Assembly: GCA_963714015.1 (NCBI GenBank) | Contig: OY970223.1 | Span: 896,001-960,000 of the forward strand | Reading direction: 5' to 3' | From: Vulcanimicrobiota bacterium | GTDB lineage: Bacteria; Vulcanimicrobiota; Vulcanimicrobiia; Vulcanimicrobiales; Vulcanimicrobiaceae | Length of the DNA: 64,000 nucleotides | Part shown: piece after piece, positions 45,414-48,216 of the stretch | Position numbering within the stretch: position 1 is the stretch's first letter | How the letters are laid out: each line of letters begins with the position of its first letter | The notes under the pieces: generated by a model | Seen by the model: the letters and a program-made list of their open reading frames with translations, nothing else | Databases searched by the model: none | What the model was told of the DNA's origin: nothing | Program-made: the position numbers and the translations under genes

Positions 45414-46268
45414 CTATTGCGGTTTTGGCAAGACGTCCCCTCGCAGCCGCTTGCGGTCGCCGGCCCGCGCATAAAGATGACGCCGCGCGCCGAGGCCCCG
45501 TTCGGAAAGCGCCTTCGCGATAGCCGACACGGCGGTGCCCGCATCCAGCAGCACGTCGATCTCGCGATCCACGTCGGCCTGCGCCGGAGCAGCCGGTAAG
45601 GCCGCAAGCGACGGACGAATCGCCAGCGCGATTTCACCGCGCACGGGCTCAGGCAATTCCGCGGCGACTTGGGCGGCTTTGCCGGCGATTTGCTGCTCGT
45701 AGCGTTTGGTGTACTCCCGCAACAAGAAAACGTCGGCTTGCGGATCCACGGCCTCGACGTCCGAAAGGAACGCGACAATCCGCTGCGGCGACTCGTACCA
45801 GATGCTCGGTACCCCGAGGGCGAAGCTTTGTGCCAGCGCTTCGCGGCGCGGTCCGGACGAGCGCGGCGCGAACCCTTCGAAGACGAAGCGCCGCAAGGGG
45901 AAGCCCGAAAGCACGGCGGCTCCTATCGCGGCGCTGGCACCGGGGAGCACTTCGATTGGTATGTCGCGCTCGCGCGCCAAGGCAACGAGCTCGTTGCCCG
46001 GGTCCGAGATTCCGGGCATGCCGGCGTCGGTGACGACGGCAACCAGCTCGCTCCGAGCGCGATCCAAAATCCCCGAAGCCGCCGCCTGCGCGTTGTGTTC
46101 GTGATAACTCCAGATCTCTTTTCCCGGCAGCCCGAGGGCGCTGAGCAGTTTGCGCGCAACGCGCGAATCCTCTGCGACGAGCAGATCGCATTCTTTCAAA
46201 ACGTCGAGCGAGCGCAAGGTGACGTCGCGAAGGTTGCCCAGCGGCGTCGGAACGAAGACGAGCGGCAT
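45414..46268 (-). CDS. rsmI: 16S rRNA C1402 2'-O-methyltransferase
   Basis: PTPLGNLRD, AEDSR, YHEHN, DAGMPGISDPG, YESPQR. Confidence 0.94.
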   Translation of the reverse strand: MPLVFVPTPLGNLRDVTLRSLDVLKECDLLVAEDSRVARKLLSALGLPGKEIWSYHEHNAQAAASGILDRARSELVAVVTDAGMPGISDPGNELVALARERDIPIEVLPGASAAIGAAVLSGFPLRRFVFEGFAPRSSGPRREALAQSFALGVPSIWYESPQRIVAFLSDVEAVDPQADVFLLREYTKRYEQQIAGKAAQVAAELPEPVRGEIALAIRPSLAALPAAPAQADVDREIDVLLDAGTAVSAIAKALSERGLGARRHLYARAGDRKRLRGDVLPKPQ

Positions 46269-46539
46269 GGCTGGGCAATTCGACCCGCGGCGCATCCCTC
46301 CGGGCGCCAAGCTGGAGCTCTTTATCAGCCCGAGCTGCCCGTACTGCCGCGAGGCCATGGCCTTCTACGATTCCGCCGGCCTGCCTTACAGCACTCACGA
46401 TGCTCAAAACGATTCTGCGGCGCGGACCCGGATGTTCTCTTACACCGGCGGCGACCCGACGGTTCCGGCGATCGTCGTGGACGGAATCTACCGTCAATCG
46501 GGTTGGGGAAGCCCGCCCCGGGGCTGAACGGTACATTAA
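46267..46539 (+). CDS. Glutaredoxin-like protein, probable C-terminal selenoprotein (...GWGSPPRG-U-TVH*)
   Basis: CPYC and TVPAIVVDG; in-frame TGA at 46525 followed by ACG GTA CAT TAA and a hairpin. Ends at 46527 if the TGA is a stop. Confidence 0.8.
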
Positions 46540-46543
46540 CTTC

Positions 46544-46561
46544 GCTGTCCGGTCGGGCAGC
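46544..46561 (+). promoter_or_regulatory. Putative bacterial SECIS element
   Basis: GCTGTCC-GGTC-GGGCAGC: 7-bp stem with one G-U pair, G-initiated 4-nt loop 23 nt after the UGA. Confidence 0.65.
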
Positions 46562-46620
46562 ACCATCAACGAACGTTAACGGCCCCGGCCGTTCACGCCG
46601 ATATTCCAAACGCAGGCTTC

Positions 46621-48216
46621 ATGATTCGCACACGCACACTGCCGCGTTTGGCACCATCGACCGTTCGCAGGCCGCGTTTAGAACGCTGGCTGGCGACGCA
46701 CGTCGCCGTTCCGCTGCGCTTGCTGGTTGCACCGGCCGGATCCGGCAAGACGACGCTGCTGCTCAAGTATTTGCCGAACAGCGTCGTGGACGCGGCGTAT
46801 TGCGCCCTGCCGCCCAATTGCAATGCGACTACACTCCGGGAAGCCGTCGCGGCGGCGTTTGCCCTTCCGCGCGTGCCGCCTTCGTACGACGACCTCGTCA
46901 TGGCTCTGCGCTCTCTCGTCTTTGAACCGACGGAGCTGGCCGTCGACGACGTCGACAACGCCTCACCCGAAGCGATGGACGAACTGCGCCGCCTGATTGA
47001 AGACGCGCCCGAGCATCTGACGTTCATCTATACTTCGCGTTCGCGCGACGCCATCGACGCCAAGACCTGGATAGCGCGCGGGCTGGCGGTCCTCTGCGAT
47101 CACCGGCGGCTCGCGTTCGATTCGGCGGAGACCGAACTGCTCGCCGAAACCTGCGGAGTAGCTTCGTCCCATCTGGACATCGGCCGGCTGCTCGAAGAGA
47201 GCGATGGTTGGGCTATCGTCGCTTGCGGCGCCGTTCGGGCCGTGGCCGAAGACGGCCGGTCGCTGAGCGACGCCTACGAACACTGGCGTGGGCGTTACGG
47301 ACAGCTGTTCACCGAATTCATCGCCGCCGAACTGGAACGCGCTCCCGAAGAAGATCGCGCGCTCGTGCGCAGTCTCATCGCGGGCGCAACCGCCGACGAT
47401 CAGGAACGCCTCCATGCGCTGGAGATGCAGGGCTTGTTCGTCGTCGGCGACGACGACGGGTATCGTCCTCTTCGCCCTATCCGGCAACTGCGCGGCCGAG
47501 GACGCTTGGCGCCCAGCGCGCGGCTTTCACCACTCGTGGTCAGGATGTTCGGCAGATTCACGGCCCAGATCGAATCGCAGGAAGTAAACTGGATCCGGCG
47601 GCGCGATCAGCAGTTCATCAAATACTTGCTTCTCAAGCCGTCGGGTTCGGCCACTCGCGCCGAGCTCGCTTCGATATTTTGGCCGGACGCCGATCGGCAA
47701 CTGGCGGCGCAGAGCGTACGCACGGCGTGCAGCAACATTCGCAAAGCGATCGCCGCGCAAGTCGGCTATGCGTGCGTGGATCTCTATTTCCGAGCCGATC
47801 CGGACGTCGCGCTGAACCTTACGAACGTGGTCGCAGACGTCCGCCGTTTCACCGCGCACGTCGCAGACGGCGATTCCGGTTTCGATCGCGGCGACACGCA
47901 GGAAGCGGCCGTTCACTATCGCGCCGCTGAAGAACTCTACACGGGCCGTTTGCTCGATGGCGACGTACCCGAGCCGTGGTTCTCGGGCCATGCGCAGCTC
48001 CTCGAGGACCGTTACGTCATCGTGCTCGAACGTTTGGCGCAGACTGCGTTCGACGAAGGCGATATGAAGAGCGCCGCAGAGTACGCCTATCGCGTACAGC
48101 GCATTCGCCCCGACGCGAGCGGTCTGGTCAAGATGCTCGGCCAGATCACGCCGCAATATTCGGGTGCCGAGTCGGGCGCATTCGAGAATCGCCGGCGCAA
48201 AAGCGCCGGTGCGTAA
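46621..48216 (+). CDS. Transcriptional regulator: MalT-like P-loop N-terminus plus SARP winged helix/BTAD
   Basis: VRRPRLE, APAGSGKTTL, SDGWA; VRMFGRF, YLLL, FWPDAD, LYTGRLL. Confidence 0.82.
   Translation: MIRTRTLPRLAPSTVRRPRLERWLATHVAVPLRLLVAPAGSGKTTLLLKYLPNSVVDAAYCALPPNCNATTLREAVAAAFALPRVPPSYDDLVMALRSLVFEPTELAVDDVDNASPEAMDELRRLIEDAPEHLTFIYTSRSRDAIDAKTWIARGLAVLCDHRRLAFDSAETELLAETCGVASSHLDIGRLLEESDGWAIVACGAVRAVAEDGRSLSDAYEHWRGRYGQLFTEFIAAELERAPEEDRALVRSLIAGATADDQERLHALEMQGLFVVGDDDGYRPLRPIRQLRGRGRLAPSARLSPLVVRMFGRFTAQIESQEVNWIRRRDQQFIKYLLLKPSGSATRAELASIFWPDADRQLAAQSVRTACSNIRKAIAAQVGYACVDLYFRADPDVALNLTNVVADVRRFTAHVADGDSGFDRGDTQEAAVHYRAAEELYTGRLLDGDVPEPWFSGHAQLLEDRYVIVLERLAQTAFDEGDMKSAAEYAYRVQRIRPDASGLVKMLGQITPQYSGAESGAFENRRRKSAGA

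Follow-up and report, generated by a model that had tools for sequence, protein, structure and literature searches.

In Escherichia coli fdhF, the selenocysteine insertion sequence (SECIS) is a hairpin situated 3' of the UGA and inside the reading frame, and the apical loop recognised by SelB is GGUC, approximately 20 nt downstream. Among glutaredoxin-like proteins the closest described systems are the Uxx-star families; for the family NF041212, the 2026 review PMC13188914 refers to Haft & Tolstoy 2025 (mSystems), and it lists UXX-star families 1 and 2, together with the HUGP/GUXX-star fusion, among predicted selenoproteins. The 2008 Global Ocean Sampling (GOS) paper lists a 'Grx-like' selenoprotein family with a UxxC motif (Grx, glutaredoxin), and the term 'C-terminal' is absent from its text. 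We report that a 64,000-nucleotide stretch of DNA from a Vulcanimicrobiota bacterium (contig OY970223.1 of assembly GCA_963714015.1, positions 896,001 to 960,000 of the forward strand; hereafter the window) very probably carries, at 46267-46539, a real, conserved and so far unannotated selenoprotein gene with a SECIS in its 3' untranslated region (UTR). As judged from comparison of sequences, it is highly likely that the product is a 90-residue glutaredoxin-fold selenoprotein with the ending GWGSPPRG-U87-T-V-H90 (U, selenocysteine, Sec), in which Sec decoding would depend on the 3' UTR hairpin and the tail may take part in a redox relay. The predicted assignment of Sec to UGA87 is strong, and for the tail we infer a role as set out below. 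The features of the locus, numbered by position in the window, are as follows.

46267..46524, plus strand: glutaredoxin-like coding region, Met1 to Gly86 (from translation; this part is annotated in databases).
46336..46347, plus strand: CPYC redox motif, Cys24-Pro-Tyr-Cys27 (from translation).
46525..46527, plus strand: in-frame UGA, predicted to be read as selenocysteine 87 (TGA in 47/47 orthologous loci; Cys in paralogues).
46528..46536, plus strand: Thr88-Val89-His90, codons ACG GTA CAT, predicted to be translated after Sec (codon conservation in 47 loci).
46537..46539, plus strand: true stop codon TAA (a stop in every one of the 47 loci at column 91, its identity variable).
46544..46561, plus strand: SECIS-type hairpin GCTGTCC-GGTC-GGGCAGC with a 7-bp stem, wholly in the 3' UTR (minimum-energy fold and covariation).
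46551-46554, plus strand: GGUC apical loop of the hairpin (RNAfold).

The ATG at 46267 opens a frame of 86 residues up to the TGA at 46525-27, and the frame ends GGT TGG GGA AGC CCG CCC CGG GGC TGA ACG GTA CAT TAA. The original prediction, made from the letters of the window alone, had described a CPYC glutaredoxin with the ending GGC TGA ACG GTA CAT TAA and, starting 16 nt after the TGA, the hairpin listed above with a G-first loop at 23 nt; all of these details, including the coordinates, the codons and the spacing, are exact to the base. A six-frame search of 61 related genomes gave 19 strong matches at 55-73% identity, counting that of the window itself; each has one in-frame TGA and an alignment that extends to residue 90, and their common ending is SGWGxPP(R/A/S)G-TGA-T-V-(H/Y)-stop. 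These 19 together with 28 loci from a phylum-wide search constitute the 47 orthologous loci referred to throughout. Unpublished genomes contribute four of the 19 orthologues, which are also four of the 47 loci (L030, L034, L036 and L038, from G023, G031, G030 and G010), seven of the 182 positive genomes of the phylum-wide search and seven of the 61 genomes in the orthologue and selA tallies. The phylum-wide search covered 401 genomes at E ≤ 1e-15 and found a match in 182, with positive genomes amounting to 180/296 in the window's family and 1/30 in a second one; the 19 other families had none. Exactly one in-frame TGA was present in 150/150 among the matches listed, in addition to which there were 33 further matches.

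Codon 87 is TGA in 47/47 loci. Codon 88 is ACG (30 loci), ACC (16) or ACT (1), codon 89 is GTC (21), GTT (15), GTG (6), GTA (2) or ATT (3), and codon 90 is CAC (30), CAT (15) or TAC (2), i.e. His in 45 and Tyr in two, so that T-[V/I]-[H/Y] is kept across the 47 loci while third codon positions drift. At column 91 the true stop is TGA in 20, TAA in 18 and TAG in nine loci. Synonymous drift, a variable true stop and a fixed upstream TGA together mark a tail that is translated beyond a recoded UGA; comparison of the orthologues thus shows, at the level of sequence, that UGA87 is under selection as UGA and that the tail is translated. In distant paralogues (35-42% identity), which end G-R-G-C-(Y/I/N)-V, Cys occupies the U column. 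The claim that the window hides a selenoprotein of the U-x-x-x-stop type, with both a CxxC centre and a Sec in the tail, is borne out by these data.

If the TGA instead simply ended a glutaredoxin of 86 residues, the hairpin would be a terminator or an mRNA-stabilising stem and the codons for TVH and the following stop would be non-coding. Public annotation has this form, since the 120 database relatives listed (64-79% identity) each span at most 96% of the 90-residue query, and 87 have a length of 86 residues; moreover, TGA is the commonest stop in the genome and a GC-rich hairpin 3' of a gene is commonplace. We nevertheless regard this explanation as very improbable: a TGA in 47/47 loci stands against a stop 12 nt further on that is TGA, TAA or TAG (20/18/9) in the very same genes, the three intervening codons drift only synonymously, Cys is aligned to the TGA in the paralogues, and the hairpin has properties (see below) that a terminator does not need.

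One of the Cys-form Uxx-star paralogues (CPYT, ending GRGCYVGKP) is situated directly upstream of hypF in the genome G017 (L050:1498-3218). This hypF has Acylphosphatase, zf-HYPF, Sua5 and HypF_C domains, and similar downstream sequence is present in L043-L045 and L047. The position directly upstream of hypF suggests a role in hydrogenase maturation for the Cys-form paralogue.

The hairpin begins 16 nt after the TGA and 4 nt past the true stop, with the first loop G 23 nt after the TGA, and the minimum-energy structure predicted by RNAfold is exactly this hairpin (-12.3 kcal/mol). Hairpins that combine a GGTC tetraloop with a stem of 5 bp or more number only 226 in the 3.56-Mb genome, both strands counted. 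Among the first 19 orthologues, 18 have a hairpin of 5-8 bp 3' of the stop; its loop is GGTC in 17 of these 18 (two of them being 5-nt loops starting with GGTC) and AGTT in one, and in the nineteenth orthologue the loop reads CGTGA. Counted from the U of the UGA, the first loop G of the orthologues is at +20 to +27, most commonly at +22.

Covariation was analysed on loop-anchored windows, as the whole-tail MAFFT alignment (A1) gapped the 5' arm and its register was broken. Two such alignments were used: A2, with 19 rows of which four come from unpublished genomes, and A5, with 43 rows (37 distinct) from published genomes only. In A2, 85.0% of the cells are paired compared to 59.3% in shuffles, and in A5 92.8% compared to 73.8% (0/500 shuffles as high in either case); cells changed on both sides number 33 (11.8 in shuffles) and 32 (6.9 in shuffles), respectively, stem pairs with change on both sides 6/7 and 4/6, and the covariation scores are 0.640 (0.187 in shuffles) and 0.463 (0.118 in shuffles). 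The shuffle test is inflated by kinship among the sequences; the slid controls, in which 33-47% (A2) and 30-50% (A5) of the cells are paired, are free of that weakness and equally clear. Since the result was repeated in A5, the conclusion is independent of the unpublished genomes. As far as can be judged from these alignments, the hairpin is SECIS-like and under structural selection. With the loop conserved and the stem co-varying, and with no T run 3' of the stem, it is not terminator-like, which again speaks against the TGA being an ordinary stop. The element had been predicted to lie wholly in the 3' UTR, and its position 4 nt past the TAA agrees with this; the covariation of its stem is significant (A2, A5). 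A second strong GC-rich hairpin, AACGGCC-CC-GGCCGTT, is present at 46573-46594 between the SECIS-type hairpin and the gene at 46621; no T run follows it.

The genome consists of one contig (completeness 89.6%) and encodes selA, selB, selD and a tRNA-Sec with the anticodon TCA, i.e. the machinery whose presence the original prediction had proposed as a check. The selA match scores 464.6 bits (cut-off 267.9), and pieces of selB follow immediately downstream of it (selA/selB at C1:1032466-1035651); the tRNA-Sec scores 74.5 bits using Rfam and its anticodon was identified with ARAGORN. The selD gene (379 bits; C1:525002, outside the window) has an in-frame TGA, FAACAG-TGA-ASKLG, followed by the hairpin GGCGCA-GGTCC-TGCGCC, whose loop G is at position +36 relative to the UGA, and is itself a selenoprotein gene. 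Among the 61 related genomes, selA is above the cut-off in 57; the three with no selA match (G004, G006 and G034) are also without a TGA-form orthologue, and in G010, which is 75% complete and TGA-bearing, selA is present only as a contig-edge fragment.

Genome-wide TGA is the commonest stop, ending 608 of the 1345 open frames of at least 400 codons, and there is no general recoding of UGA. This bears on the suggestion that UGA87 is read through without the Sec system, for example by a near-cognate tRNA that inserts Trp or Cys, or because the genetic code has changed throughout the lineage. Such reading would also account for the conserved codons downstream, but it is contradicted by the use of TGA as the main stop of the genome and as the true stop 12 nt on in 20/47 orthologues, and it explains neither why a conserved GGUC hairpin stands at the distance of a SECIS nor why the Sec machinery is complete; we find it hardly credible. 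Two other sites in the genome with a TGA and a GGTC hairpin (L162 and L163) are unsupported as selenoproteins: one of them appears to be a pair of neighbouring genes, whose TTHB210-like and DUF1801 domains flank the TGA, and the other is without a Pfam match.

Several observations weigh against reading the locus as a Uxx-star-like selenoprotein gene with a redox tail. Firstly, in this assembly selA and selB are each split by apparent frameshifts over two or more frames. The essential genes rpoB (C1:2035484-2038733) and rpoC (C1:2063474-2066972) are also split over two or more frames; pseudogenised Sec machinery was therefore rejected, and the splits of all four genes are most simply assembly indel errors. 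Secondly, the stability of the hairpin as a single sequence is unremarkable (z = -1.68; 14/200 shuffles fold as well), and so the case for the hairpin rests on comparison. Thirdly, an Rfam scan of 46400-46700 with E up to 10 gave no SECIS family match; its lone match, to an unrelated small RNA (10.8 bits, E = 10), is at chance level and was discarded. Fourthly, the score against NF041212 is below the cut-off of 66, with 45.4 bits for the truncated and 45.5 bits for the read-through protein, and the alignment covers only profile positions 2-58 of 70, leaving the tail columns unaligned. Finally, the review PMC13188914 says that the Sec of UXX-star proteins may be a metal-binding ligand or interact with unknown substrates.

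That last statement favours an explanation in which Sec is real but the tail, instead of acting as a redox relay, contributes to a site composed of Sec87, His90 and the CxxC motif that binds a metal or metalloid or carries selenium or sulfur. The conserved His (45 loci) or Tyr (two loci) at the C-terminus would fit such a site, as would the relative in which the Cys-form paralogue lies directly upstream of a gene for maturation of the hydrogenase metallocentre. The neighbourhood of the gene in the window, on the other hand, has no relation to metals (rsmI stands divergent to it in 39/46 loci, and metG in 35/46), and the core of the protein is a classical dithiol CPYC glutaredoxin; we consider a metal or carrier site possible but rather doubtful.

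With respect to the original prediction, three outcomes that would speak against it had been named in advance: a genome lacking selABCD, homologues ending in TAA or TAG at the position of the TGA, and absence of conservation of the downstream codons and the hairpin. All three were examined and none refutes the selenoprotein reading, the TGA column being TAA or TAG in none of the 47 loci and Cys in the paralogues, and the downstream codons and the hairpin being conserved by synonymous and compensatory changes, respectively.

Turning to the protein, PF00462 (Glutaredoxin, Pfam) covers residues 17-73 with 46 bits (cut-off 22.9), and the matches by sequence in the PDB are classical glutaredoxins that reach only residue 73-79. 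An AlphaFold2 model based on a 22-row alignment (A3) has a mean predicted local distance difference test (pLDDT) value of 94.3, a predicted template modelling (pTM) score of 0.85 and a beta-alpha-beta-alpha-beta-beta core; for residues 81-90 the mean pLDDT is 95. The top Foldseek matches in the PDB are glutaredoxins (root-mean-square deviation 1.4 Å across 62 columns), and Grx domains of thioredoxin-glutathione reductases are among the matches. Cys24, Pro25 and Tyr26 are invariant in A3, the fourth position of CPYC is mostly Cys (Thr in Cys paralogues and Ser in one orthologue), and the column at position 87 is invariant with U in 20 rows and Cys in two; in the window protein Gly86 precedes UGA87. 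DSSP assigns isolated beta-bridges at 65-66 (Thr-Val before the cis-Pro), 85 and 87-88.

On the basis of these data we propose that Sec-tRNA(Sec, UCA), delivered by SelB, decodes UGA87, and that the GGUC-loop hairpin in the 3' UTR would be bound by SelB while the ribosome holds UGA87 in its A site. A second UGA, which is the true stop in 20/47 orthologues, lies 12 nt closer to the hairpin; it would be too close to it for decoding as Sec and would terminate translation. In the model the Gly-Sec tail is predicted to fold back beside the cis-Pro loop (T65-V66-P67) and the CPYC centre, a contact deduced from the DSSP beta-bridges. More loosely, Sec87 might exchange a selenenylsulfide with Cys24 and Cys27, giving a two-centre redox relay in one small protein.

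In bacteria, release factor 2 is a competitor of Sec insertion, which is often inefficient. This would favour a dual output, in which the 86-residue CPYC glutaredoxin is the main product, the 90-residue Sec form is minor or selenium-dependent, and UGA87 acts in part as a selenium-sensing switch; the truncated product retains the whole Grx fold and CPYC. Strict conservation across the clade of the residues in the tail and of the SECIS shows selection on the full-length form, and we consider a dual output of this kind unlikely.

The ATG of the selenoprotein gene on the plus strand (46267-69) overlaps, within the palindrome CATG at 46266-46269, the ATG of an rsmI-like methyltransferase gene on the minus strand (46268-46266); given this overlap, the promoter of each gene must lie within the other gene. 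The head-to-head rsmI neighbour is kept in 39/46 loci, and metG, beyond rsmI, in 35/46. Downstream, at 46621-48216, is a gene for a protein of 531 residues with AAA_22 ATPase and BTAD transcriptional-activator domains, and such an AAA/BTAD regulator gene lies beside the selenoprotein gene in only 4/46 orthologous loci. The neighbourhood says little about the function of the gene.

Concerning its placement among Uxx-star proteins, the best NCBIfam match of the window protein is NF041212, the Uxx-star family glutaredoxin-like (seleno)protein. The link to Uxx-star proteins drawn in the original prediction stands as homology, with NF041212 as best match and relatives ending U-T-V-H passing its cut-off, but not as membership of the window protein itself (45.5 bits against 66); the orthologues L024 and L041 are likewise below the cut-off (56.3 and 59.4 bits). 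The window protein shares two traits of the family: a small domain of glutaredoxin/thioredoxin fold whose N-terminal motif is Cxx[CT] (or Uxx[CT]), here CPYC, and a Sec or Cys after Gly at the extreme C-terminus, here Gly86-Sec87. NF041212 places two residues after Sec, a rule deduced from the family name and from a profile that ends two positions past U, and in the window protein three (T-V-H) follow U87. A sister family of the same class ends GF(G/D)G(G/A)-U-(T/A/S)-(V/I)-H-stop, and the one member tested, L049, scores 93.5 bits on NF041212; the Cys paralogues score 76.8 and 66.0 bits.

A pattern scan of the genomes of 185,579 species matched at least 600 stretches, of which at least 599 are confirmed relatives. 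In the best 80 of these at least 599 loci, the first in-frame stop is TGA (80/80) and is followed by two to four codons, a stop and a hairpin; the codons encode either two residues (G/A/S/R then I/F/V/M/T) or T-(V/I)-(H/Y/Q) with an optional further residue. The same 80 loci come from at least eight phyla, including Zixibacteria, Ignavibacteriota, Chloroflexota, Actinomycetota, Acidobacteriota and Vulcanimicrobiota. Their hairpin loops (L082-L161, public records of metagenome-assembled genomes, MAGs) are of few types, GGTC, CGTG(N) and CAGT-like. Their distribution seems to follow phylum and suggests that recognition of the SECIS by SelB differs between lineages. Representative tails and their scores on NF041212 (cut-off 66) are as follows.

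L084, L116 and L099: core U-x-x-stop tail; 112.6, 105.8 and 103.8 bits.
L150, L148 and L142: acidobacterial GWEGRG-U-TVH tail; 86.8, 85.2 and 79.8 bits.
L149 and L154: GWG(T/N)P(P/L)RG-U-TVH(D/P) tail; 77.3 and 74.4 bits.

A set of 136 family loci, a sample heavily biased to the window's clade, comprises 67 with U-x-x-stop, 64 with U-[TSA]-[VI]-[HYQ](-x)-stop and five with Cys. A quick tree was computed from 102 of these 136 rows and 73 usable columns, omitting four unpublished rows, 28 close orthologues (L054-L081) and two identical sequences. It recovers the window's clade (15 rows) with a support of 93 in the Shimodaira-Hasegawa-like approximate likelihood ratio test (SH-aLRT), and this clade joins acidobacterial T-V-H forms and Cys paralogues weakly (support 76). 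The window protein is a homologue and functional analogue of the Uxx-star proteins and belongs to a divergent, lineage-specific branch.

In the databases the listed relatives of the window protein are named glutaredoxin, glutaredoxin 3, glutaredoxin domain-containing protein and, once, GST N-terminal domain protein (GST, glutathione S-transferase), and their source labels are MAGs named Candidatus Cybelea, Baltobacteraceae and Eremiobacteraeota; in the sister form, too, the database relatives are cut, at GFGGG. In the collection of papers searched, 'Uxx-star' occurs in one, and none combines 'Eremiobacterota' and 'selenocysteine'. A conserved putative selenoprotein of a major, largely uncultured soil lineage is thus cut short in every database relative listed; NF041212 misses the clade, and a lower cut-off or the addition of these sequences would mend the annotation in many genomes. 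The kind of selenoprotein is already known, and the gain is a clade-wide correction of annotation together with an example of an untranslated SECIS: the locus would show, in a clean natural example, a bacterial SECIS confined to the 3' UTR, and, with a second UGA 12 nt downstream as the stop in 20/47 orthologues, would illustrate position-dependent decoding of UGA. Moreover, a selenium requirement would be added to the physiology of this lineage, and the part played by a C-terminal Sec tail in a CPYC glutaredoxin becomes a question that experiments can address.

Compared to known systems, the hairpin in the window and the fdhF SECIS are alike in their placement 3' of the UGA, their GGUC loop and a similar distance between the two. 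Unlike in fdhF, the frame in the window closes 9 nt past the UGA and no part of the element is translated. The selD gene of the same genome shares the GGUC loop type with the window hairpin.

As in NF041212, the window protein combines a small glutaredoxin fold, an N-terminal CxxC, a Gly-rich stretch and a near-C-terminal Sec with a SECIS hairpin past the stop codon. Core members of NF041212 differ in ending GFGGG-U-G-[IFVM]-stop and score 104-113 bits, and relatives with the identical U-T-V-H tail score 74-94 bits, above the cut-off; the window protein departs from the family by a three-residue PPR insertion before the Gly-Sec and an N-terminal extension of approximately 14 residues. Two acidobacterial sequences, L149 (from a Blastocatellaceae MAG) and L154 (from a Chloracidobacterium MAG), have the tail GWGxPxRG-U-TVH and the same placement of the hairpin as the window protein; unlike the latter, they are without the N-terminal extension, have one extra C-terminal residue and pass NF041212. 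Both fall with the window's clade in the quick tree, at a weak support of 76. UXX-star families 1, 2 and 3 (NF041114, NF041211 and NF047338) and the HUGP/GUXX-star fusion (NF045501) are members of the same superfamily, but with 15-31 bits the window protein is far under their cut-offs (72, 100, 97 and 325 bits, respectively). According to the review PMC13188914, UXX-star family 1 carries a UxxT motif with a second Sec; at this place the window protein has CPYC. The clostridial selenoprotein glutaredoxin (UxxC; same review) has a glutaredoxin fold with Sec, as does the window protein; in the clostridial protein, however, Sec replaces the first active-site Cys, whereas the window protein keeps CPYC and carries its Sec on the tail.

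In mammalian thioredoxin reductase and thioredoxin-glutathione reductase, a C-terminal Gly-Cys-Sec-Gly tail communicates with a dithiol centre or a Grx domain. The window protein resembles these in having Sec on a short C-terminal tail after Gly, and by analogy the redox relay we infer may be comparable to the way their GCUG tail addresses a dithiol centre; the window protein differs from them in having 90 residues, no flavoprotein module and no Cys beside Sec, and the analogy is functional only. As a tentative extension, put forward with some reserve, the tail might dock in the protein's own glutathione groove and form an intramolecular selenenylsulfide with Cys24, giving a self-contained two-centre redox module, and the superfamily (at least 599 loci) would show routine use by bacterial SelB of SECIS elements placed wholly beyond the reading frame. 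If this is true, the window protein would be a miniature of the Sec-tail-to-Grx relay of thioredoxin-glutathione reductase.

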